From Poseidonia sp. (lineage in GTDB: Archaea; Thermoplasmatota; Poseidoniia; Poseidoniales; Poseidoniaceae): a DNA stretch of 28,323 bases. How positions within the stretch are numbered: position 1 is the first letter of the stretch; each line of letters starts with the position of its first letter. Where the stretch lies: positions 1 to 28,323 of the forward strand of contig DASCRS010000036.1 of NCBI GenBank assembly GCA_034402455.1, given 5' to 3'. A program made the position numbers and the translations under genes. Shown here piece after piece: positions 5,211 through 14,693 of the stretch. The notes beneath the pieces were generated by a model. The model was given only the letters and a program-made list of their open reading frames with translations. It had not been told where the DNA came from and made no database searches.

Positions 5211-5870
5211 CTAAGGGCTTCGTCTTCGGATTTCATCTGAGAAGAAATTCATGACTTTGCTTTCAACACGCTGAATTTGCGCTGAAAGTGTAGATTTGGA
5301 AACACCCAAAAGTTCAGCAAGTGTGGTGAGGGTGATCTTTCTTTGAGGGTCGTAAAATCCCTCTCTAATCGCAATATCATAGACTTGACGTTGTCGTTCT
5401 GTCAACAACCGGCTCGAGGTGCTTCGAGTGGACACTAATCGGTGTGGAATATTTTCGTGCTTAAATTCTTCAATGAGTTTTCTCATTTTGTGTCTATCGC
5501 ATTCAATCACCCAATCAACCCATCCATCACGAATTTCAAATGGGGTTCTTGGAATGACGTGCAATTGCAACAAAGGTTTGAGGAAACCCCCTCCTCCAGC
5601 ATTAATAGTTACATGATAGCGATTGCTTTCAACCATTTCAAAGTCTGCTACTCCAAGGTGAGTCATGATGGTGGTCGACAAATCTTCGGTTGAAGAAATG
5701 ATACCTGATCCTTGACCTTTGGCCAAGGCCATGTGTTCGTCTATTCGAATAATAGAAGAAGGATGGCTTCTGGAAACATCGCCAGCCCAATGTCCGTTGG
5801 GTAAACGTACTTCAATTCTCATTTGGTGCGTTGTTTTGTTCTCTTCTCGTGGTTGTGACTTTATCGCCAT
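5211..5870 (-). CDS. HTH_10 (bacterio-opsin activator Bat / DmsR / NarO-type HTH) transcriptional regulator
   Basis: C-terminal LTERQRQVYDIAIREGFYDPQRKITLTTLAELLGVSKSTLSAQIQRVESKV is the HTH_10 signature. Confidence 0.9.
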   Translation of the reverse strand: MAIKSQPREENKTTHQMRIEVRLPNGHWAGDVSRSHPSSIIRIDEHMALAKGQGSGIISSTEDLSTTIMTHLGVADFEMVESNRYHVTINAGGGGFLKPLLQLHVIPRTPFEIRDGWVDWVIECDRHKMRKLIEEFKHENIPHRLVSTRSTSSRLLTERQRQVYDIAIREGFYDPQRKITLTTLAELLGVSKSTLSAQIQRVESKVMNFFSDEIRRRSP

Positions 5871-5933: not shown

Positions 5934-5975
5934 ATAAATAGCATTTGGGCGAACATCTCTTTACGAACATGTTCG
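5934..5975 (-). promoter_or_regulatory. Promoter of the HTH_10 gene: TATA-like element plus two CGAACAT boxes, one a perfect palindrome
   Basis: CGAACATCT at 5950-5958 and the 14-bp palindrome ACGAACATGTTCGT at 5963-5976. The minus strand reads CTATTTAT at 5941-5934. Confidence 0.75.
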
Positions 5976-5984
5976 TGCTGCTCA

Positions 5985-6599
5985 TTAGTCATCCATTGAT
6001 GAGTTCATTTGTTCCATGGTGATGATGAAAATAGCCGCAAAACCTACTCCCAAAAGGATGGTTGCGATCTCTCCTGAAGTGAATCCATCCGGTCCATCAA
6101 CAATAACCGCCTTTTTTGATGTGGTTATGCTTGTCGTGTCTTTCGTCCAGTGGTCACCACTTCCAGCTATACCATCGCCATTCACAGCATTACCGTATGT
6201 TGTGAAGGTTACAACAGTACCTTTGGAAGGTGCGTTCCATTGAACCGTCCAAGTCCGCTCATCGTTTCCTTCAGAGGTATGTGTTGCCTCTCCATCAAGT
6301 ATTTGCGTGAATATGTCCATTGAACCAAGGGTTCCAGTTGAAGCCCGAAGATTGAATCCTCCAGTGTTCAATCCGCTCGATTCTGGACCAGTGAGATTCA
6401 CATAAACAGTGTATGATTCACCGTGAGTCCAATTGAGGGGAACGCCTTCCACTGTCAGAGCAGCCTCATCTGAAATAGCGCCATCTCCATGACATGTACA
6501 TCCTGAATTAACACCATTTATTCCACTACTATAGCCGTTTGATAGGGGTGCTATGAATATCAATAGAAATGCGCAACTTACTCCAATGAGGTACCTCAT
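5985..6599 (-). CDS. Secreted, C-terminally membrane-anchored choice-of-anchor V / Reeler-like protein with a CxCH motif
   Basis: Signal peptide, SGCTCHG, GGFNL, THT, WTVQWNAP, GNAVNGDG and a C-terminal TM helix. Clearly paralogous to the Cox1 N-terminal domain. Confidence 0.8.
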   Translation of the reverse strand: MRYLIGVSCAFLLIFIAPLSNGYSSGINGVNSGCTCHGDGAISDEAALTVEGVPLNWTHGESYTVYVNLTGPESSGLNTGGFNLRASTGTLGSMDIFTQILDGEATHTSEGNDERTWTVQWNAPSKGTVVTFTTYGNAVNGDGIAGSGDHWTKDTTSITTSKKAVIVDGPDGFTSGEIATILLGVGFAAIFIITMEQMNSSMDD

Positions 6600-6636
6600 G
6601 GTGGTGCCTTAACCTTCTATATCACAAAGGTTAGAA

Positions 6637-6656
6637 CGAACATGTAAGCCCAACAT
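6637..6656 (-). promoter_or_regulatory. CGAACATGT-N7-ACAT box upstream of the CxCH protein
   Basis: CGAACATGT at 6637-6645, 38 bp from the ATG at 6599. Second ACAT at 6653-6656. Confidence 0.75.
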
Positions 6657-6668
6657 CTCAGATGCCTT

Positions 6669-7226
6669 TTATCGCAAAAATGGGTATTGCTCAACAATTC
6701 GAATACGACTCCACCACGAACCGAGCCCCCATGTGTCTCCACAGCGCATGTTCGCCATGCCAAGGCAGAGGATGGCATAGATTAGGTGATGATCGAAAAA
6801 AGGATTGTGTTCCTGTGGTATCGCAGATAACCAAATCATGAACAACATGAATGCACCAGAATAACCGCCAATCTGTGTACCCATTCCTGTGATGAATGCT
6901 AAGCCTACCATAAGTAGGCCAATCATGAAAAGCCATTCAACAGTAACACTGGTAGAAAGGCTTTGGAACCAATCTGCAAAAGGCCCTTGAGTGCTGTATT
7001 TGAGAAAACCTTGGGTTGGGTGACCACCGTTCACCCAGGCCTCCTCGCATCCAAATTTAGCTGATCCACCAACATTGCATGTAGAATCCCCTAGGCCAAA
7101 CGTTCGGTCCAAAAATGGCCATAAAAATACACAGCCCATTGCAATTCGAATCAGTGACCAATATCGCTCTTGAAGGAAATTAAACATGGTTGTTTCCTGT
7201 TCCGATTCTGCTTGAATTGGCGACAT
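6669..7226 (-). CDS. DoxX / DoxD-like membrane protein
   Basis: LIRIAMGCVFLWPFLDRTFGLG, WVNGGHPTQGFL, EWLFMIGLLMVGLA, HNPFFDHH and GDTWGLG. Start at 7226 has GGAG 7 nt upstream. Alternative start at 7187. Confidence 0.8.
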   Translation of the reverse strand: MSPIQAESEQETTMFNFLQERYWSLIRIAMGCVFLWPFLDRTFGLGDSTCNVGGSAKFGCEEAWVNGGHPTQGFLKYSTQGPFADWFQSLSTSVTVEWLFMIGLLMVGLAFITGMGTQIGGYSGAFMLFMIWLSAIPQEHNPFFDHHLIYAILCLGMANMRCGDTWGLGSWWSRIRIVEQYPFLR

Positions 7227-7275
7227 TAGGCATCTCCATATGGCGCATATGGAGGATATGTAGAGTATCCTACGC

Positions 7276-7295
7276 CGAACATGTCCCACTTACAT
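7276..7295 (-). promoter_or_regulatory. CGAACATGT-N7-ACAT box upstream of the DoxX gene
   Basis: CGAACATGTCCCACTTACA matches the 14675 site at 18 of 19 positions. It overlaps only a spurious ORF extension. Confidence 0.75.
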
Positions 7296-7311
7296 CAGTT
7301 TCGTAGACATT

Positions 7312-7842
7312 CTAACTACCCTCTGACATATTCCCCGCAGTTGCACCTGCCTTGGGTTGAACAGAAAAAACACCGCTCTCAGTATTGGAGGTTTTTCCAC
7401 AAAAAATCGCACAGTCAACAATCACTGAACCAGCACCAGGGATGTCAATTTGACACATTCCAGTACTCGAAAAGGCATACTCTCCCGGTGCGGGTGCGGT
7501 AAAGACCACACTGCTAGGGTGAGTCAAATCAAATGAATATGAGAGATTCAAATCAGGTACAGTGAGTGAATCAGCGATGAAGTGCTGTTCGTCGTATTTC
7601 CTAAAATGGAGACGTACACATTCATCTTCCTCAAATTCAATTGATGCGGTTTCAAACGTCATGTCGTAATTGACACAACCGTCATCAATCATCGTTTGAT
7701 CTTTGCACTCCTCCAAGAAGGAGCCCACCTCTTCATCACAAATGCTGGTTGACTCAGTGAACATCAGATTCGATGAAAATGATATCAGAACCATAATGGC
7801 ACAAATCAAATGCCCTTTGGCAATTTTCCAATCATTCTCCAT
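7312..7842 (-). CDS. Membrane-anchored cupredoxin-like protein with a degenerate copper site
   Basis: N-terminal hydrophobic helix, then SLTVPDLNLSYSF..VVFTAPAPGEYAFSSTGMC, a cupredoxin-type core lacking the usual first Cys, His and Met. Start overlaps the nirK stop (7842, or 7848). Confidence 0.65.
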   Translation of the reverse strand: MENDWKIAKGHLICAIMVLISFSSNLMFTESTSICDEEVGSFLEECKDQTMIDDGCVNYDMTFETASIEFEEDECVRLHFRKYDEQHFIADSLTVPDLNLSYSFDLTHPSSVVFTAPAPGEYAFSSTGMCQIDIPGAGSVIVDCAIFCGKTSNTESGVFSVQPKAGATAGNMSEGS

Positions 7843-9253
7843 CTTCATCGTAAACGGTGGTGTTTTCCGCACCAGTCACAGAAATAATGCCTATGGCTCC
7901 TTTGTGGAAGGCACGTGTAAGGGCGTGGTCAACCAAGATGTAGTTCGCAGGAACTTCAAAGACAAGGTCAACAATAACAGCTCCACCTGGGGCAACTATA
8001 ACGGTTTGAACGCTTTCCAATGGAGCACTTTCGGTGCTTGCTAGATTGTAGGCTCGGTCGAAAATCTCACCAATGACGTGGAATGATGAAATGGTATTTG
8101 GACCTCCAACTCCGAAATAAATCCTCATTGATTCTCCGACATTTGCTTTGATGGTATCATCTCCAGTGAAGGTTGCAAATTTGCCATTGAACACGACGTA
8201 GGTTGGGCGTTCGTCAAAGAGCGCATCAACATCCATTTCTTGATGACCTTCGGTGCCAGGGCGCCATTTTGTGTACAAATCGCCCTGCATGACGTAAATT
8301 TCTTTGTCGACTTCCGGCAGTGGAACTTCGGGTTCAATGTAGATCATTCCGTACATGCCTTTGCTGATGTGAGTTGGGATGTCAGGTGTCGCGCAGTGGT
8401 ACACATAGAGTCCAGAATGCATGGCAAGGAAGGAGAATGATGTCGATTCTCCTGGAGCGGTCGTCGTTGCTTCAGCTCCGCCTCCTTGTCCAGTTACAGC
8501 ATGGAAATCCACGTTGTGATGCATCATGCTTTCAGCACGATTGCTGAAATGAACAATTACAGTATCGTTAATTCGTGCTCGGAACATTGGCCCTGGTACG
8601 GTTGCGTTGTACGTCCAATATGTGAAGGTCGTACCAGGTTCAAGCTCTGCAGTGACCTCAACAGCCTCAAGATAGATGTGAACCGTGGTTGATGTGTTGC
8701 GCCCTGTTGGTCCAGGAATATCGTAAGGGTCCTTGGCGATATTGTCAACATCGACGGTCAATGCTGGGCCGATGTTTTCAATTAGCGTTGTACTTGACTG
8801 CCCAGAACCAACAATGAGCGTTCCGACCATTCCACCAGCACGGTGCCCTGCAATGCTACAAAAGTATGCAAATTGGCCCTGAGTATCAGCAACAAAGGTG
8901 ACAGAATCTTCAGATCCAGATTCAGTCAATTGTTTTGTCGCAACATCATAACCTTCTACGGAAATATCGTGAAGATTCATTTCACCCATTTCCAAGGTTA
9001 TGGTCACACGATCACCGGTTTGTACCGATAGTTCGGGGTTGACCAGGCCGTCGATGGAACCACCAACACCGATGTAGGACATTTCCTTGCCTTTGAGTGT
9101 GAATTCAACGTCATTGTACATGACTACGCATTTACCATCAACCAGCTCTGTATCCTTGCCACAGGTTGTCGTCGTTTCTTCGTCTCCCAAACAGCCAGAG
9201 AACCCAGCAGTTATCATCACAAGTATCATTATCATTACATTTATTTTTCTCAT
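7832..9253 (-). CDS. nirK: Copper-containing nitrite reductase, lipoprotein, with an extra N-terminal type-1 cupredoxin domain
   Basis: HNVDFH, YVYHC..PTH..KGMYG, SSFHVIGEIFD and LVDH give all T1/T2 Cu ligands plus the catalytic Asp and His. The N-domain has LHD..YFCSIAGHRAGGM. Lipobox-like FSGC. GAGGTGG site before the ATG at 9253. Confidence 0.93.
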   Translation of the reverse strand: MRKINVMIMILVMITAGFSGCLGDEETTTTCGKDTELVDGKCVVMYNDVEFTLKGKEMSYIGVGGSIDGLVNPELSVQTGDRVTITLEMGEMNLHDISVEGYDVATKQLTESGSEDSVTFVADTQGQFAYFCSIAGHRAGGMVGTLIVGSGQSSTTLIENIGPALTVDVDNIAKDPYDIPGPTGRNTSTTVHIYLEAVEVTAELEPGTTFTYWTYNATVPGPMFRARINDTVIVHFSNRAESMMHHNVDFHAVTGQGGGAEATTTAPGESTSFSFLAMHSGLYVYHCATPDIPTHISKGMYGMIYIEPEVPLPEVDKEIYVMQGDLYTKWRPGTEGHQEMDVDALFDERPTYVVFNGKFATFTGDDTIKANVGESMRIYFGVGGPNTISSFHVIGEIFDRAYNLASTESAPLESVQTVIVAPGGAVIVDLVFEVPANYILVDHALTRAFHKGAIGIISVTGAENTTVYDEDGE

Positions 9254-9297
9254 CGTAATACCACCTCTAGTGGTTGTTTCGTGGTCTGTGTTGGGTA

Positions 9298-9324
9298 TTA
9301 TAGCCCCGGCCACGAACATATTAG
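9298..9324 (-). promoter_or_regulatory. nirK promoter: CGAACATATTAG box plus TATA-like CTATAA
   Basis: Box at 9313-9324. Minus-strand CTATAA at 9303-9298, the same box-to-TATA spacing as at cox3 and the CBS gene. Confidence 0.7.
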
Positions 9325-9342
9325 GCGGAGGTGTACGATTCC

Positions 9343-11514
9343 TCACTCGCCCTCTTGGGCGAACGGGTGACCAATAGAATGGTCAAAATTATGAGGTGGT
9401 GGAGGGGATGAAACTGTCCATTCAAGGGTTGACCCATTCCATGGGTTTGGCCCTGCGATCTCACCGTGTTTCATACTGCGCCAGAAGTTGTAAAAGAACA
9501 ACAATTGCCCAGCAAAGACCACAAAACCACCAATGGTAGCAATAAGATGAGCGACTTCCCAGCCAGCTGATTCTTGATAGAAATATATTCTTCGGGGCAT
9601 GTCAGTCAGACCAAACAAGGGAATCCATGTGAGGTTAATTCCAATAAATGTAATCCAGAAATGGTACATTCCCAATTTCTGGTCCATCATTCGACCGAAC
9701 ATCTTCGGGTACCAATAGTAAATTCCACCCAAAGTCATGACTGCAACGGCACCCAGCGTATAGTGGAAATGCGCAACTAGATAATAGGAGCCTCTCAAAT
9801 TGACATCCATGGCGACACTTGAGAGGTAGACACCAGTAATACCTCCAACAAGGAAAATACCGATGGCTCCGGTCACGAAGACAAGAGGAAGTTTTTTCCA
9901 ATCTGGCTTTGAGCGATAAAAAGTTGCTAGCAAGGAGAGATAAATCAAACCGAATGGAACGCTAACAAGTTCCGTTCCAATGGTTTCAATTTTCCTGAAT
10001 GTAGGATTGATTCCAGTGATGAACATATGGTGTGCCCATACCAATACCGATATGATTGAGGCAACAACCAAGGAATAAATGATGATTTTTCGTCCGTAAA
10101 GTGAACGACGGACCGTGTTGGGGATAATTTCCATGGCCATTCCCAATCCTGGTAGGAGGACAATGTAGACCTCGGGATGTCCGAAGAACCAGAAAATATG
10201 CAACCACCATGTTGTTCCATCGATGCTTGGGTCAAAGAACATGGTTCCAAAGACTCGGTCACCAACAAGCATGAGCACCGCTGCCATGAGTGCAGGGAAC
10301 ACCGCGAGCATCAAAATGACGGTAAAAAGAATGTTCCATGTGAACATGGGCATCTTCATCAATGGCATTCCAGGTGTTTTCATTTGCAAGATTGTGACAA
10401 GGAAATTGACCGTGCTAAACGTGACAGAAAGAATCAACAAAACCAGCCCAGCACCCGCCAGACTTATTCCAGCACCAGGGCTGTATTCTATGCTCGTCAA
10501 GGGGCTATAGAACGTCCAACCAGCATCCGCAGCGCCACCAAAGAAGAATCCACTTGCGGCAACGAGGCCGCCAAAGAGAATCATCCAAAATGACATTGCA
10601 TTGAGACGTGGGAAGGCCATGTCCTTGGCTCCAATTTGAAGAGGGACAATGTAATTTGCAAAAGCAAAGGACATTGGAGATACGGCGAACAGAACCATAA
10701 CGGCACCGTGCATGGTGACCGCTTCGTTGAACAACCCTCCAGTCATGAAATCATTATCCGGTACGATCAATTGGATTCGGATGAGCAAAGAGAGCGCAAG
10801 TCCGATAATGGTGAACAAGAGTGTGGTCCAAAGGTAGAGCATTCCGATGTCTTTGTGATTGGTCGTTGTCAACCAATGCATGACTGTTTTTTTGTCCACT
10901 GCTGGGTTTCTGACCATAAGTACAACCACTGCTGCAACCAAGCCAAGGATGGTCAAAACAATGAGCCACCAAGCAAGATTTGTGAAATCAATGATTGGTC
11001 CGCCGTCGGAATTTAACCCTTCTACCAAGATTTCTTGGCTTGACCAAAGGTCTCCAGCAGAATTCAAACCGTCTCCGTCAACGGCGTTGCCGAATACTTT
11101 GAACGAAATGTCGTCGGTGTCATCAAGAGGAGCATTCCATTGAACTGTCCACTCTCTTACATCGTTCCCCTCAAGTGTATGAGTCATCTCAATTCCCTTA
11201 TTTGGGCCATCAATCACTCGCGTGTGGTTGTCAAGCGAAACAAATTCGCCCCCATCAGCATGCAGGTTGAATCCACCAGAGTTTGCTCCGCTCGCTTCAG
11301 GACCCCCAGTGATGTTGATGGTGAGTTCGTAGCTTTCGGAGCCGTTGTAAACGTCTGGTAATCCTGTGATGGTTACTGTCACATCGTTGGATGCACTTCC
11401 TCCTCCGTGGCATGTACATCCACTGTCGACATTAGCGATTCCGTTGGAAACACCTTCCATCGTAGGGGCAAATGCAATCAAAACAAGAATTGCCATTGCG
11501 AGTAAACGCTTCAT
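9343..11514 (-). CDS. coxA: Heme-copper oxidase subunit I (A1-like) with a fused N-terminal extracellular CxCH domain
   Basis: TMHG, KDMAFPRLN, GWTFYSPL, WFFGHPEVY, WAHH, AHFHY and MPRR. Signal peptide, about 160-aa domain and an extra TM helix precede the core. ATGA overlap with cox2; GGAGGTGG site upstream. Confidence 0.95.
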   Translation of the reverse strand: MKRLLAMAILVLIAFAPTMEGVSNGIANVDSGCTCHGGGSASNDVTVTITGLPDVYNGSESYELTINITGGPEASGANSGGFNLHADGGEFVSLDNHTRVIDGPNKGIEMTHTLEGNDVREWTVQWNAPLDDTDDISFKVFGNAVDGDGLNSAGDLWSSQEILVEGLNSDGGPIIDFTNLAWWLIVLTILGLVAAVVVLMVRNPAVDKKTVMHWLTTTNHKDIGMLYLWTTLLFTIIGLALSLLIRIQLIVPDNDFMTGGLFNEAVTMHGAVMVLFAVSPMSFAFANYIVPLQIGAKDMAFPRLNAMSFWMILFGGLVAASGFFFGGAADAGWTFYSPLTSIEYSPGAGISLAGAGLVLLILSVTFSTVNFLVTILQMKTPGMPLMKMPMFTWNILFTVILMLAVFPALMAAVLMLVGDRVFGTMFFDPSIDGTTWWLHIFWFFGHPEVYIVLLPGLGMAMEIIPNTVRRSLYGRKIIIYSLVVASIISVLVWAHHMFITGINPTFRKIETIGTELVSVPFGLIYLSLLATFYRSKPDWKKLPLVFVTGAIGIFLVGGITGVYLSSVAMDVNLRGSYYLVAHFHYTLGAVAVMTLGGIYYWYPKMFGRMMDQKLGMYHFWITFIGINLTWIPLFGLTDMPRRIYFYQESAGWEVAHLIATIGGFVVFAGQLLFFYNFWRSMKHGEIAGPNPWNGSTLEWTVSSPPPPHNFDHSIGHPFAQEGE

Positions 11515-12245
11515 TGTGCACCACCTCCAGAATACCATTGGTCAAAATCGGATTTCTCCATAACTTCGAGTTCACCAATCATGACGGCATGGTCTGCCCC
11601 ACACAATTCATAACAACGAATTGGATAAGTTCCCGTTTCTTCAGCCAAAATCCATCCTATGTTTGGACGACTTGGGAGTGCATCAACCTTAATTCGGTGT
11701 TCTGGCAAGGCGAAGGAATGAAACACATCTCCGCCAATGACTTCGAACACGACTGGGGTGTCAACCGGGATTCGTAATGGTTCATCGGTGGCACTGGTGT
11801 AATTGATTCCATTGGGGTATTCGTATTCCCAATAATACTGCCATCCCGTGACTTGCACGGTGAACGATTCCTCCTCAAGTTCTGGTGTCTCAAAAAATTT
11901 GATTGAATCGAAAGTAACTGAAGAAAGGACGAGAAGAAATACAGTAATGATTACTGTAAGGCTCCATGAAAGTTTGACATTTCCTCGTTCAATAGGCATT
12001 TGTCCCAAGAAAGGAGCATCCGAAGGTTCGACTTCCACTTCAGTCGTTACCAACCAAAGGAAGAAACCGTAGACAGTAACGGCTACAATACATCCTAATG
12101 TCCAGTAAATCAAGAAGAGGTTGTCGTATACCTTGGCGTGTTCTCCAGTTCCAGGTTCTTGGAACCATTTGATGATTGAGCCAAAGGTCAGCATAAGAAT
12201 AACAATCGAGAAGAAAATGAGTCCAAATGCCCGTTTATTCTGCAT
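11511..12245 (-). CDS. coxB: Heme-copper oxidase subunit II, CuA type, no cytochrome c domain
   Basis: Two TM helices, GWQYYWEYEY, DVFHSF and CYELCGADHAVM. GGAGGT site and ATGA overlap with cox3. Confidence 0.95.
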   Translation of the reverse strand: MQNKRAFGLIFFSIVILMLTFGSIIKWFQEPGTGEHAKVYDNLFLIYWTLGCIVAVTVYGFFLWLVTTEVEVEPSDAPFLGQMPIERGNVKLSWSLTVIITVFLLVLSSVTFDSIKFFETPELEEESFTVQVTGWQYYWEYEYPNGINYTSATDEPLRIPVDTPVVFEVIGGDVFHSFALPEHRIKVDALPSRPNIGWILAEETGTYPIRCYELCGADHAVMIGELEVMEKSDFDQWYSGGGAQ

Positions 12246-13057
12246 CAGATAACCTCCACATATACAATCAAGAACAGCACCATCCAAACCACATCAACAA
12301 AGTGCCAATACCATACAATGGCTTGGAATGAATCCCTTCTTCCGTTGTCATAGTATCCTTTTTTGTGTAAGAAAGCGACCCCCCCTAAGGCAATGATTCC
12401 AACCAATACATGGAGTCCATGCAATCCTGTTAAGGCAAAGAAAGCGGTGCCATAAGGATGGTCTTTCCATGTGAACCCTGTATGCATATATTCATACAAT
12501 TGAATAGCCAAAAAGAGAGCACCAAAAGCGATGGTAATGTACAGATTCTTTCGAGAACGAACCAGTGAACCCCGGTCATGGGCGTGAAGAGAAAGGTGGG
12601 CTATGATTCCCGAAGAAAGCAATAATGCAGTGTTGAACATCACCAGCATCATGTTGTGGTGAATCTCTGCTGGTGGCCATGAAGATGAGGCGATTGCTCC
12701 ATCCCAAGAAACAGTGTGCCATTTCGCCCAAAACCAAAATGCAAAGAATCCCGCAAAAACAATGACTTCTGTGAGGATAATCCATACCATTGCCCACGAA
12801 GCATGGCCCATTTTGTGGGTTGAAATCTCACGAAATTGCCAGAGATCAACATCTTCTCTAACCCAAGAGAATATCGACCACACCAACATTGGAATTGCAA
12901 GGAAAGCGATGGGCCATATGAGTAAAGAAGCAAGTGTTAAGGTTACTGAAAGTGAAAAGATTAGAGGTACCAAACTGGAATGAACTTCTCCAGGTTCTCC
13001 GTGAGCATCCATGTTGATTTTCCAAAGCGATTCATTCGGTAAGTGTTCACCATCCAT
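12245..13057 (-). CDS. coxC: Heme-copper oxidase subunit III
   Basis: LTEVIVFAGFF, WPP, NTALLLSSG, FFALTGLHGLHV and YWHFVDVVW. Start 13057 is supported by promoter geometry. Confidence 0.93.
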   Translation of the reverse strand: MDGEHLPNESLWKINMDAHGEPGEVHSSLVPLIFSLSVTLTLASLLIWPIAFLAIPMLVWSIFSWVREDVDLWQFREISTHKMGHASWAMVWIILTEVIVFAGFFAFWFWAKWHTVSWDGAIASSSWPPAEIHHNMMLVMFNTALLLSSGIIAHLSLHAHDRGSLVRSRKNLYITIAFGALFLAIQLYEYMHTGFTWKDHPYGTAFFALTGLHGLHVLVGIIALGGVAFLHKKGYYDNGRRDSFQAIVWYWHFVDVVWMVLFLIVYVEVI

Positions 13058-13079
13058 GGATATTCCAGGGGAGAGAAGA

Positions 13080-13115
13080 ATATACATTGTAACACGAACA
13101 TGTAGGGGGGACATG
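13080..13115 (-). promoter_or_regulatory. cox operon promoter: CGAACATGT-N7-ACATG box plus TATA-like GTATAT
   Basis: Box at 13095-13103, 38 bp from the ATG at 13057. Second ACATG at 13111-13115. Minus-strand GTATAT at 13085-13080. Confidence 0.75.
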
Positions 13116-13143
13116 CCTTACCAGTGTTGGAGTTCCAAGATTC

Positions 13144-13737
13144 ATGAGGGCTGATACTTCAATTGTACTAAGCCTCTTGATTTTAGGAGCATTTCTTTCG
13201 CTTTCCCCACTAATCTTATTTGGCGACTCAGAGCAATTGAATACGGTCACACGAGACGATTTATCCGTTGAACAAATTTCATCATTAAACAATGGGACCT
13301 TCGCTAAAAGTCTCAAAGATAATGATGCCATCATCATTACATCGGCGATTATTGTCAAAGATTCCTTGTTCATCGCAGGTGAATTTTCTGGAGAAATTAC
13401 CATTGGAAATCAATCCTATCTCAGCCAAGGATCTTCGGATCTAATCATGGCAAGGCTTGCACCAAATGGAACATGGATTTGGGTTGAGGTTCTTGGGGGA
13501 GCTGGTAATGACCGTGACGTAACATTTGAGTACAAAAATGAACAATTATTCGTAAAGGGCTCAATTTTTGGTGAAATCAATACTACATCGGGTTATACGG
13601 TAGGCAGTGGAGAAAAAAATGGCCATGAAAGGATTATTGGAGAAATTTCAGTTGAAAACGGTACCTGGAAGTTGCTTACAGTTGACCCGTTTGGAGACCT
13701 AAGTGCGAACCCCTCTCTATGGTGCGGATGGCGATGA
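13144..13737 (+). CDS. Hypothetical membrane-anchored or secreted beta-rich protein
   Basis: N-terminal TM or signal helix. IAGEFSGEITIG..DLIMARLAPNGTWIWVEVLGGAGND resembles archaeal surface beta-propeller repeats. Confidence 0.7.
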   Translation: MRADTSIVLSLLILGAFLSLSPLILFGDSEQLNTVTRDDLSVEQISSLNNGTFAKSLKDNDAIIITSAIIVKDSLFIAGEFSGEITIGNQSYLSQGSSDLIMARLAPNGTWIWVEVLGGAGNDRDVTFEYKNEQLFVKGSIFGEINTTSGYTVGSGEKNGHERIIGEISVENGTWKLLTVDPFGDLSANPSLWCGWR

Positions 13738-13744
13738 TGGGCCC

Positions 13745-14167
13745 TTAGATGTGATCTAGAAGAGCCTCATTGTGAACGAAAGACCATCCATATGCATGGA
13801 AGTCCTTTTTGTCAATTTCTTCAATTTCGCAGCCAAGATGCGACCAAATCAATTCGATGTCGCCTCTTACTTCCATTCGATAAGAGATAATGTCCATCCA
13901 TTTTTTCTTTTGTGTAGTGTCCATCAGCAATATAACTCCGAGGTCTTCGTTAATCTCTTCAAGGGTTGAATGGATTGTTTTTCCTTTGATTTTCAATCCA
14001 TTCTTTGCTGGATCAACGATGAAATATTCCCAATTATCTTTCTCCAATTTTGTGATGATTGACAACCAAGAGTGGTGGTCAATGTTTGAATCGCCAAGAA
14101 GGGCAATTTGCTTCAAACTACGAGCATATTCAATGATCTCATTCGGAAGAAGGTGTTGGTGGGCCAT
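13745..14167 (-). CDS. Divergent CoA-binding (YccU-like) Rossmann domain protein
   Basis: IALLGDS, FIVDP, KGKTIHSTLEEI, IWSHLG and FVHN follow the YccU pattern loosely. Confidence 0.55.
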   Translation of the reverse strand: MAHQHLLPNEIIEYARSLKQIALLGDSNIDHHSWLSIITKLEKDNWEYFIVDPAKNGLKIKGKTIHSTLEEINEDLGVILLMDTTQKKKWMDIISYRMEVRGDIELIWSHLGCEIEEIDKKDFHAYGWSFVHNEALLDHI

Positions 14168-14217
14168 GAGGAGCGATTCTCTTTAGGAGCCTTGTATTTT
14201 TCACGAATATGTCCGTC

Positions 14218-14637
14218 TTATGGGAAATTTTTGTTTTGATTCATGTGCTCAAGAACCGATTGCAATGTGACCAAGCCCAGAATATTTCCATCTTGAATTA
14301 CTGGCAGGCGCTTTACATTGAATGCAGACATCTGCAAGTAGGCGTCATCAATCGTACACAGAGGCCCAATATGATGCAACGCTCTCAGATTAAATGAATA
14401 CAAGGGTCGTTTCCAAAAAGCCTTGATTTGAACCTCACGTTCTTCTTGTAAACGAAGCATTTCTGTTGAAGTGATTATGCTCCACGGACGATTATCTTGG
14501 TCCAAAATTACAAGAGTGCAAGTTCCAAGCTTGCCGATATAATCAGCGGCATCCAAGAAACATACATCAGATGTGATTAGAGGGGGGGAGCATGACATAA
14601 ACTCCCCAACCGTCAATTTATTGCTCAACCTTGGCAT
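14218..14637 (-). CDS. CBS-pair protein
   Basis: VGEFMS..PP, ..WSIITSTEML and AYLQMSAFNVKRLPVIQDGNILGLVTLQSVL form two CBS motifs. Confidence 0.85.
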   Translation of the reverse strand: MPRLSNKLTVGEFMSCSPPLITSDVCFLDAADYIGKLGTCTLVILDQDNRPWSIITSTEMLRLQEEREVQIKAFWKRPLYSFNLRALHHIGPLCTIDDAYLQMSAFNVKRLPVIQDGNILGLVTLQSVLEHMNQNKNFP

Positions 14638-14659
14638 GGCGTGTGAAATTAAACCTAAG

Positions 14660-14693
14660 ATATAGACTTGAAAGCGAACATGTCCAACTTACA
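14660..14693 (-). promoter_or_regulatory. CBS gene promoter: CGAACATGT-N7-ACA box plus TATA-like CTATAT
   Basis: Box at 14675-14683, 38 bp from the ATG at 14637. Minus-strand CTATAT at 14665-14660. Confidence 0.75.

Follow-up and report, generated by a model that had tools for sequence, protein, structure and literature searches.

The Haloferax denitrification promoter motif precedes respiratory genes in an uncultured marine archaeon

In an uncultured marine archaeon, at least eight respiratory genes are preceded by the same box that turns on denitrification genes in Haloferax. The window (the whole stretch of DNA analyzed, 28,323 nucleotides long) belongs to a Poseidoniaceae, Marine Group IIa (MGII) MAG. 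The sites sit at a locked distance from start codons, are conserved in relatives, and co-occur with a gene for an HTH_10 regulator. We regard the box as almost certainly a real cis-regulatory site, and a dimeric HTH_10 factor of the NarO/DmsR type probably binds it and activates from upstream of BRE/TATA.

The box and its promoters

In full, the element spans 12 bp and is palindromic, CGAACATGTTCG; the half nearer the promoter, ACATGTTCG, is almost invariant. The original prediction had recognized the site but had taken it for a 9-mer, CGAACATGT. Exact + strand copies of this 9-mer lie where they had been reported, at 5964, 6637, 7276, 13095, and 14675 (five in the window), and a sixth match falls on the - strand because positions 5964 to 5975 form a perfect palindrome. 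Dinucleotide shuffles give an expectation of 0.20 copies in the window, and 0 of 100 shuffles reach six. The two variants that had been listed are also present, CGAACATCT at 5950 and CGAACATAT at 9313, and the sites at 7276 and 14675 are indeed identical at 18 of 19 nucleotides. One box, at 14204 to 14215 before orf140, had been overlooked. The window therefore holds eight boxes for eight promoters within 8.7 kb, and at least one further boxed promoter lies on another contig of the same MAG, so that the proposed regulon, which is kept at orthologous promoters, stands while its count of six promoters does not. The features are as follows.

5211 to 5870, - strand: HTH_10 regulator P0001, 219 aa, candidate box binder (PF04967; AlphaFold/Foldseek; haloarchaeal homologues)
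5934 to 5941, - strand: TATA-like CTATTTAT, 9 nt past the proximal HTH_10 box
5950 to 5961, - strand: proximal, weaker box AAGAGATGTTCG (gene orientation), start 14 bp from the palindrome start
5964 to 5975: perfect palindrome CGAACATGTTCG, the more distal of the two boxes in the HTH_10 promoter
5985 to 6599, - strand: choice-of-anchor V (CTCH) protein, secreted and anchored; regulon member (NF041895, 82 bits)
6637 to 6648, - strand: box CTTACATGTTCG, 37 nt before ATG 6599
6669 to 7226, - strand: membrane protein, 185 aa; regulon member
7276 to 7287, - strand: box GGGACATGTTCG, 49 nt before ATG 7226; short leader implied
7312 to 7872, - strand: cupredoxin-like gene overlapping nirK
7832 to 9253, - strand: nirK, copper nitrite reductase bearing an additional cupredoxin at its N terminus (TIGR02376, 331 bits, cut-off 296; Pfam)
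9296 to 9303: nirK TATA-like CTATAATA, implying a leader of ~22 nt
9313 to 9324, - strand: variant box CTAATATGTTCG, 59 nt before nirK ATG 9253
9343 to 13057, - strand: cox3-cox2-cox1 operon, A-type heme-copper oxidase
13095 to 13106: box CCTACATGTTCG (cox3 orientation), centre of an 86-bp divergent gap
13144 to 13737, + strand: orf197, divergent from cox3, same box
13745 to 14167, - strand: orf140; regulon member
14204 to 14215, - strand: box CGGACATATTCG, 36 nt before orf140 ATG 14167 and 2 nt past the CBS stop codon
14218 to 14637, - strand: CBS-domain protein; regulon member
14658 to 14665: CBS TATA-like CTATATCT
14675 to 14686, - strand: box TGGACATGTTCG, 37 nt before CBS ATG 14637

Neither the membrane protein nor orf140 has a family match. 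Cox1 has a choice-of-anchor V domain at its N terminus. On a related contig, CBS genes adjoin the cox3 end of the island.

Every site is intergenic and lies 5' of a minus-strand gene (starts at ATGs 6599, 7226, 9253, 13057, and 14637), as had been described, except that the box at 13095 additionally serves the divergent + strand gene orf197; 37 nt separate it from the cox3 ATG (13057) and likewise from the orf197 ATG (13144). The spacing given as 38 bp for CxCH, cox3, and CBS corresponds to 37 nt when only the bases separating the box from the A of the ATG are counted. Typically, the box ends 36 to 37 nt before the ATG and a TATA-like element starts ~8 to 10 nt past it; TATA-like octamers begin 9 to 10 nt past the box at HTH_10, nirK, cox3, and CBS, in agreement with the original prediction, and 14 nt past it at CxCH. 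Only the 12 bp and the TATA-like element are common to the promoters and the flanks differ, indicating that these are not duplicated segments. Tandem 12-mers with starts 14 bp apart occur at the regulator's own promoter and at the BoxB-like promoter, and this spacing at the HTH_10 promoter matches the BoxB-like promoters of relatives. Given the distances between box, TATA-like element, and start codon, boxed genes probably yield mRNAs with little or no leader, and the site would occupy about -48 to -37, immediately 5' of BRE/TATA. RNA runs gave three short contigs in the window; an RNA-library contig at 13077 to 13313 crosses the box, which counts against this reading.

Distribution in the genome, the family, and diverged relatives

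Across the whole MAG the 9-mer occurs 19 times, with ~10 copies intergenic though only ~7% of the DNA is, and the first ATG of an ORF most often stands 36 to 37 nt from the box (6 of 41 pairs; expectation 0.5), a bias on which the original prediction depended. Some copies elsewhere are plainly coding, such as one at the rpl15e N terminus on contig C24, and in the sister family the P-N-M-F-G-D codons of a conserved gene account for most palindromes.

The perfect 12-mer is found in 37 of the 40 Poseidoniaceae genomes that encode the HTH_10 regulator and in 0 of the 20 that lack it, counts drawn from related genomes that are not independent samples; three genera each contain both states, box and regulator present or absent. 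Three genomes with the regulator are exceptions; in one of them, G061, the variant CGAATATGTTCG stands 14 nt from the gene, and in another, G052, this spot is masked with Ns. When family loci were fetched by the palindrome, the HTH_10 gene adjoined it in 25 of 30, and in 24 the palindrome lay between the HTH_10 gene and a BoxB-like gene. A reversed control pattern is almost absent (~9 matches versus ~150). The footprint over 48 distinct Poseidoniaceae BoxB-like promoters reaches 1.97 bits per position in the proximal 12-mer and 1.59 in the distal one, against 0.68 in the 2-nt spacer and 0.4 to 1.0 in the flanks. The predicted core target family-wide is the BoxB-like di-iron gene, not the respiratory island. 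No such box was seen near distant homologues of the regulator in other Thermoplasmatota families.

The island is retained in metagenome contigs L029, L031/L032, L066, and L027, whose regulators are 65 to 83% identical, and boxes and ATG distances are retained with it, in keeping with the original prediction. Boxes lie 36 to 38 nt before cox3, CxCH, and orf197 in these diverged contigs; in L029, L031, and L066 the CxCH gene still has one 37 nt away, and L029 and L066 retain the symmetric cox3/orf197 layout. Variant boxes occur 50 to 58 nt before nirK in L027, L029, and L031 and also before the regulator gene. In L031 the gene homologous to orf140 is preceded by TGAACATGTTCG; an in-frame ATG follows at 36 nt, yet another ATG comes earlier, at 18 nt.

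The haloarchaeal parallel and the HTH_10 regulator

The Haloferax denitrification motif, CGAAYATDKTYG, is semi-palindromic and is found in the nir, nor, and nos promoters of H. mediterranei, as CGAACATGTTCG at nor and nos and as CGAATATGTTCG at nir (PMC10062603). The link that had been suggested to Haloferax denitrification promoters is thus borne out by the published motif, and is closer than had been stated: the core is identical, 5964 to 5975 is the nor/nos form, and positions 960 to 971 of contig C104 are the nir form. The remaining seven boxes of the window agree with the consensus at 7 to 10 of 12 positions, and all but the orf140 box have an intact proximal half. In Haloferax, mutation of the motif lowers promoter activity, and full nor/nos activity requires it (PMC10062603); the genes concerned are induced in denitrifying conditions, and among them is the gene for the Bat-like regulator of the cluster itself (PMC10062603, PMC11218638). 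As cited in PMC10062603, Hattori et al. 2016 report motifs of this type in other haloarchaea.

In both systems the box is repeated five to eight times in a 10- to 25-kb respiratory island with nirK and copper proteins, stands a few tens of nucleotides before start codons, and occurs in the promoter of a small Bat-like HTH_10 regulator within the island. The lineage is a distant one, as had been supposed: Poseidoniaceae belong to another phylum than the haloarchaea, and the host is marine and non-halophilic, with 47% GC versus 61 to 62%. Most respiratory promoters here keep only the proximal half and the CATG centre (ACATGTTCG); in haloarchaeal sites, by contrast, both halves are retained and it is the centre that varies. 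The distance from box to ATG is 36 to 37 nt here versus ~42 nt in the haloarchaeal loci examined and 66 to 79 nt as published. Unlike in Haloferax, an A-type oxidase and a BoxB-like di-iron operon are among the proposed targets, and no nor, nos, or DUF2249 genes were seen in the MGII island loci examined.

Residues 156 to 207 of P0001 match a C-terminal HTH_10 domain (PF04967, E 2.9e-16; 59.5 bits, cut-off 23.1). With its AlphaFold model (pLDDT 84.7), the only significant Foldseek matches in Swiss-Prot are Bat, NarO, HVO_1357, and DmsR (residues 2 to 218). The N-terminal region is predicted to be the Bat-associated alpha/beta type, without PAS or GAF domain, as in NarO (E 4e-10) and DmsR (3e-9) over the full length. 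NarO and DmsR are small HTH_10 proteins of the Bat type that regulate anaerobic respiration in Haloferax and Halobacterium; P0001 resembles them in size (~210 aa), in its C-terminal HTH_10, and in adjoining respiratory genes that it is predicted to control, but identity is only 14 to 20%. Hattori et al. 2016 reportedly describe an N-terminal cysteine cluster in NarO as a redox or oxygen sensor. P0001, in contrast, has a single Cys, C123, and therefore would not sense through such a cluster; it is accordingly not classed as a NarO orthologue. No Cys column is conserved among 34 MGII homologues.

Closer relatives are haloarchaeal, uncharacterized nirK/nor-cluster regulators (26 to 33% identity), with which P0001 aligns over its full length and shares an LPxGxW.GD motif. 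All five of the best plasmid homologues examined are ~210-aa HTH_10 genes within nirK/nor/halocyanin/DUF2249 clusters, each with 2 to 8 CGAAC-N2-GTTCG palindromes versus ~0.02 to 0.03 expected, and in four of the five a palindrome lies 42 to 48 nt before the regulator's own ATG. Reverse searches from the haloarchaeal regulators match the copies on C36 and C104, which are paralogues 51% identical, and not a third HTH_10 gene.

Binding factor and mode of action

We think it quite likely that the HTH_10 protein is what binds the box, and comparison of the loci suggests that the regulator encoded beside it is likely the binder in both Poseidoniaceae and haloarchaea. Candidate binders are the regulator at 5211 to 5870 and the C104 paralogue, which could share or split the sites. 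The factor would most likely recruit TFB/TBP, activating transcription. Co-induced genes would be its own, the A-type heme-copper oxidase operon, and nirK, along with those for the choice-of-anchor V protein, the membrane protein, orf197, orf140, and the CBS protein and, elsewhere in the genome, the BoxB-like di-iron oxygenase operon. Hypoxia or N-oxides, by analogy with Haloferax, are tentative candidates for the inducing signal, and the "anaerobic" role is suggested by homology. The oxidase is A-type and not obviously low-oxygen, which counts against this reading.

The same site and protein could instead form a repressor operator, with a factor against BRE blocking TFB/TBP until a signal arrives. 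The box does end only ~6 nt short of the BRE position that flanks TATA, and a BRE-abutting site could repress too; moreover, tandem boxes 10 to 35 nt from a regulator gene's ATG in L031 and L040 occupy a typical autorepression position. At most promoters, however, the box lies entirely upstream of TATA, never covering TATA or the start, and the conserved half-site is the promoter-proximal one, as expected for contact with the basal machinery. Mutating the identical Haloferax motif lowers nor/nos promoter activity, which is activator behavior. Repression thus seems rather unlikely, and we lean toward an activator. It is distinctly unlikely that another protein binds and that the neighboring HTH_10 gene is a mere regulon member. 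The HTH_10 assignment draws on genomic association (adjacency, co-occurrence, autoregulatory sites), the recognition-helix residues (K-S-T-x-S...R-x-E) are conserved family-wide and therefore are no proof of subfamily specificity, and a second small HTH gene, whose product could be the binder there, adjoins the HTH_10 gene in haloarchaeal clusters. The MGII island, however, has no small second HTH gene, HTH_10 is the sole regulator gene common to box-bearing loci of both phyla, and box and gene are co-present or co-absent among 61 Poseidoniaceae genomes. A box without regulatory meaning, whether from chance, composition, duplicated-promoter remnants, or a small mobile repeat, is highly improbable: the coding copies elsewhere fit such an origin, but the shuffles, the reversed control, and the differing flanks speak against it, and the position lock and cross-genus footprint are incompatible with chance.

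Activation from this position has precedents. Ptr2 of Methanocaldococcus jannaschii and TFB-RF1 of Pyrococcus furiosus are activators that bind just upstream of BRE/TATA, where recruitment of TBP or TFB is known to work. The box, given its fixed distance to the ATG, would likewise lie directly upstream of BRE/TATA; those activators are Lrp/AsnC and others, whereas the candidate here is HTH_10. The bacterial FNR/DNR/NnrR box, TTGAT-N4-ATCAA centred near -41.5, differs in sequence, in the unrelated CRP/FNR fold of its regulators, and in serving sigma-70 promoters, but it too is a single palindromic box at a fixed promoter position that unites terminal oxidase and denitrification genes.

Promoter boxes in the respiratory island

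Contig C36 of a 1.1-Mb MAG (55% complete, 46.6% GC) makes up the window, and close homologues of its HTH_10 regulator carry the name Candidatus Poseidoniaceae, i.e., Marine Group IIa. Exact matches to the 9-mer CGAACATGT lie on the plus strand at 5964, 6637, 7276, 13095, and 14675, the five positions of the original prediction. A sixth match, on the minus strand at 5964-5975, arises because the site there is a perfect palindrome, CGAACATGTTCG. Dinucleotide shuffles give an expectation of 0.20 copies, far below the number seen, and none of 100 shuffles reached six; a chance origin of the repeats is effectively excluded. The variants predicted at 5950 and 9313 are both present. With gene starts set at the ATGs at 5870, 6599, 7226, 9253, 13057, and 14637, the sites are, as proposed, intergenic and upstream of minus-strand genes. 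The proposed regulon is supported, but its size of six promoters is wrong: there are at least eight in the window, and the box of orf140 had been overlooked.

Boxes of the window (12-mers, written in gene orientation)
5964-5975, distal box of the HTH_10 regulator gene, CGAACATGTTCG
5950-5961, proximal box of the HTH_10 regulator gene, AAGAGATGTTCG
6637-6648, box of the CxCH gene, CTTACATGTTCG
7276-7287, box of the membrane-protein gene, GGGACATGTTCG
9313-9324, box of nirK, CTAATATGTTCG
13095-13106, box of cox3, CCTACATGTTCG
14675-14686, box of the CBS gene, TGGACATGTTCG
14204-14215, box of orf140, CGGACATATTCG; ATG 36 nt downstream

Genes behind the boxes
5211-5870, minus strand, HTH_10 regulator gene with a box-bearing promoter
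5985-6599, minus strand, CxCH gene, with its own box; the product is a choice-of-anchor V protein (CTCH motif)
Start at 7226, membrane-protein gene with a box-bearing promoter
7832-9253, nirK; the copper nitrite reductase passes the equivalog model TIGR02376 (331 bits, cut-off 296) and has one additional cupredoxin domain at its N terminus
Overlapping nirK, a cupredoxin-like gene
Start at 13057, cox3-cox2-cox1, A-type oxidase in which Cox1 has a choice-of-anchor V domain as fusion partner
orf197, orf140, and CBS-domain protein genes, with boxes upstream of each

The 13095 box lies exactly at the center of the 86-bp divergent gap at 13057-13144, 37 nt from the ATG of cox3 and 37 nt from that of orf197. 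This symmetric layout, in which one 12-mer faces two starts, is kept in two further loci (L029 and L066). The TrxR gene (14788) was considered as a regulon member and left out of the count because the 14675 box, 101 nt away, is not position-locked to it.

A TATA-like octamer begins 9 to 10 nt past the box at HTH_10, nirK, cox3, and CBS, in agreement with the prediction, and 14 nt past it at CxCH. Promoters of the BoxB-like gene described below have GGTATAAGG or a variant at this place. Where the ATG is 36 to 37 nt past the box, the TATA center falls ~26 nt before the ATG, which is the standard archaeal TATA-to-start distance, suggesting leaderless or near-leaderless mRNAs. Starts predicted in this way fall no more than a few nt from 6599, 13057, 13144, 14167, and 14637; relative to them, the box would span about -48 to -37 and abut the BRE. 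The nirK and membrane-protein mRNAs would have short leaders, with starts near 9275 and 7238. Metagenomes of runs X1 to X3 contain 82 to 99% of the window. RNA-labelled runs containing window DNA yielded three short contigs only. A contig from a 454 "transcriptomic" run (13077-13313) extends over the box into the 5' part of the orf197 gene. If this contig is RNA, some transcription may run across the box; the alternative is DNA carry-over. Promoters with a single box have a degenerate distal half and, ~13 nt further upstream, a conserved TGT that corresponds to the "second ACA(T)" noted originally. This TGT resembles a remnant of the second box of tandem sites, whose starts are 14 bp apart.

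Distribution of the box in the MAG and in Poseidoniaceae

The MAG holds 19 copies of the 9-mer, ~10 of them intergenic, although intergenic DNA makes up only ~7% of the total. We paired matches with at most one mismatch with each ORF-opening ATG up to 150 nt downstream. The box-to-ATG distance is 36 to 37 nt in 6 of 41 pairs across the MAG, against 0.5 expected, so that the predicted positional bias holds genome-wide along with the intergenic excess. One more promoter is on contig C104, which carries a paralogous HTH_10 gene 51% identical to that of the window. Directly after its stop codon come CTAACATGTTCG, two bases, CGAATATGTTCG, and a TATA-like element, and 37 nt past the second box is the ATG of a gene for a di-iron protein, followed by orf181, EamA, and 3-hydroxyacyl-CoA dehydrogenase genes.

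Feature of contig C104
1009-2169 (locus L021), BoxB/PaaA-like di-iron protein gene (TIGR03225, 231 bits, under the cut-off of 499)

On sequence evidence, the box is a transcription-factor site whose regulon comprises at least eight promoters in the window and the BoxB-like operon. The CARDB-domain protein gene on contig C9, with the near-match AGAACATGTTTG 36 nt before it (L083, 2326-2337), is only a possible member. A 9-mer copy on contig C60, in the divergent gap between AhpC and NUDIX genes (L022, 4951-4959), was rejected as not position-locked.

Judged from its distribution, the respiratory island is accessory. A close homologue of the window cox3 is found in only 1 of 40 other family genomes sampled, and the same island recurs on metagenome contigs whose regulators are 65 to 83% identical to the window regulator. 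Its usual order is CBS, CBS, orf140, orf197 (opposite strand), cox3, cox2, cox1, nirK, CxCH, and HTH_10. On some contigs it is inserted downstream of glpX and ahead of the HTH_10/BoxB-like pair, so that two HTH_10 genes stand in tandem; in two loci these paralogues, placed between the island and the BoxB-like gene, are only ~30% identical to each other (L031, 7961-9318; L040, 1553-2894). Boxes stand at the same promoters and distances in these related contigs, which bears out the prediction at orthologous promoters: the ATG is 37 to 38 nt from the box at cox3, 37 nt at CxCH, and 36 to 37 nt at orf197, and the orf140 homologue of L031 has an in-frame ATG 36 nt from its box. In the same contigs nirK is preceded by variant boxes at 50 to 59 nt and the regulator by tandem boxes.

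The BoxB-like di-iron gene is the family-wide core target of the box. Nineteen species of the window's genus share the order glpX, HTH_10, double box, BoxB-like gene, with invariant double boxes and a variable spacer between them. A search of 61 Poseidoniaceae genomes with CGAAYATGTTCG gave ~150 matches, against ~9 for the reversed control. The palindrome adjoins an HTH_10 gene in 25 of 30 fetched loci, in 24 of them between HTH_10 and the BoxB-like gene. Of 40 genomes encoding the regulator, 37 have the perfect 12-mer; none of 20 without the regulator has it, and both states occur inside three genera. In one genome (G069) the regulator copy is interrupted by a contig end. Among the three exceptions, G061 carries a variant, CGAATATGTTCG, at 14 nt from its regulator gene. 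In the complete genome G052, also an exception, the apparent absence of the box carries no information, since an N run (L070, C1 ~1483-1497) covers exactly its expected place, with HTH_10 on one side and the BoxB-like gene on the other. In a set of 48 distinct BoxB-like promoters, the information per position is 1.97 bits in the proximal 12-mer and 1.59 bits in the distal one, against 0.68 bits in the spacer and 0.4 to 1.0 bits in the flanks; as related genomes are not independent, these values describe a footprint, not a probability.

Outside the family, palindromes in 14 of 29 genomes of the sister family were rejected as a wider regulon because in eight of the nine loci read they lie inside coding sequence. 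In six of these loci (L085, L088 to L092) the palindrome falls within one conserved gene, on the codons P-N-M-F-G-D, and in two further loci of the nine it is inside other ORFs. One MGIIb genome (L086) has a true island with boxes at looser spacing. In other Thermoplasmatota families, distant full-length homologues (27 to 33% identity) have no such box within ~6 kb; the protein family as a whole therefore does not share it.

The candidate regulator and its haloarchaeal counterparts

The haloarchaeal denitrification motif named in the original prediction is a published one. The nar, nir, nor, and nos promoters of Haloferax mediterranei have CGAAYATDKTYG in common, in the form CGAACATGTTCG at nor and nos, identical to the window palindrome, and CGAATATGTTCG at nir; its mutation lowers nos and nor promoter activity (PMC10062603, PMC11218638). 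Eight copies lie in the 12.5-kb nirK-nor cluster and five in the nar-nos region, and the small Bat-like regulator E6P09_00735 of the nirK-nor cluster, which carries the motif and is induced in denitrifying conditions, has been proposed as a candidate binder (PMC10062603, PMC11218638). Our literature search found no description of the motif outside haloarchaea.

A tblastn search of plasmids with the window regulator (P0001, 219 aa) returned haloarchaeal records only, at 25 to 33% identity over ~90% of its length. We opened the five best-ranked matches (Haloferax larsenii, Haloprofundus, Halogeometricum, Halomarina, and Halorussus). In all five an HTH_10 gene of ~210 aa lies within a nirK/nor/halocyanin/DUF2249 cluster, beside coxAB too in one. 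Each cluster contains two to eight CGAAC-N2-GTTCG palindromes, against ~0.02 to 0.03 expected, and in four of the five a palindrome stands 42 to 48 nt before the regulator's own ATG. The reverse search recovers the C36 and C104 genes (E values of 1e-14 to 1e-22) and did not match the MAG's third HTH_10 gene. The haloarchaeal clusters differ in having a second small HTH gene beside HTH_10 (L023, 12676-13050; L033, 8807-9181; L034, 8730-9104) and several DUF2249 genes; the MGII island loci that we read showed neither.

The alignment of P0001 with the regulators of the haloarchaeal clusters extends over the full length. Common to them are LPxGxW.GD, a motif near the N terminus, and K-S-T-x-S...R-x-E in the HTH_10 helix. 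Its AlphaFold model (pLDDT 84.7) has two alpha/beta modules followed by the HTH, and the only significant Swiss-Prot structural matches, all full length, are Bat, NarO, HVO_1357, and two DmsR proteins. For the N-terminal fold, PDB fold and profile searches gave only weak matches to ferredoxin/ACT-like modules. We file P0001 as NarO/DmsR-type by architecture and not as a NarO orthologue, since it has a single cysteine and an alignment of 34 homologues shows no conserved Cys position.

Proposed mechanism and implications

The adjacent HTH_10 protein, possibly with its paralogue, is most likely the binder: no other regulator gene is shared by the box-bearing loci of the two phyla, gene and box occur together, and the strongest sites are in the gene's own promoter. 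The rival reading, that another protein binds the box, draws on the recognition helix, which is conserved across the whole family and so is no proof of common specificity. At the box, the HTH_10 factor would recruit basal factors and activate transcription. Repression from the same site is the rival mode; we favor activation because the box would lie directly upstream of BRE/TATA and the identical Haloferax motif behaves as an activator site. The regulator and BoxB-like promoters have strong tandem palindromes where the respiratory promoters have half-sites, which suggests that induction would be graded and autoamplified. The inducing signal may, by homology, be low oxygen or N-oxides. This step is the weakest because the island encodes an A-type oxidase and no known cofactor motif is present in the sensor region.

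Motif and regulator type are already known from haloarchaea. New are the presence, tight position lock, and regulon of the box in Marine Group II, its coupling to the BoxB-like operon across the family, and cross-phylum evidence pointing to the likely binder of the Haloferax motif. We give somewhat less than an even chance to the idea that HTH_10 and the CGAAC-N2-GTTCG operator form one respiratory switch, ancient or laterally shared, of Halobacteria and Poseidoniales. If so, nir, nor, and nos of Haloferax would have the HTH_10 protein of the nirK cluster as their master regulator, and some populations of the abundant "aerobic" Marine Group IIa archaea would have an oxidase and nitrite-reductase module inducible in low-oxygen or nitrite-rich water, e.g., on particles or in oxyclines. 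The link between HTH_10 and box is open to direct test in the tractable Haloferax.

Few ocean microbes are as abundant as Marine Group II archaea, which are usually called strictly aerobic; to our knowledge, none has been cultured and gene regulation there is almost unexplored. The gain here is a cis-element with sharp limits, a candidate regulator that can be named, and a regulon in which a terminal oxidase and a copper nitrite reductase are tied to an operon for a di-iron oxygenase; the box-bearing genes can serve as metatranscriptome markers of low-oxygen or N-oxide responses. The MGII NirK is 45 to 47% identical to haloarchaeal NirKs. In Cox1 (9343-11538) the N-terminal choice-of-anchor V domain covers residues 20 to 168 (NF041895, 87 bits) and has the CTCH motif in common with the free-standing paralogue encoded at 5985-6599; domain and paralogue may form an unusual module through which electrons enter the oxidase or its metals are handled.
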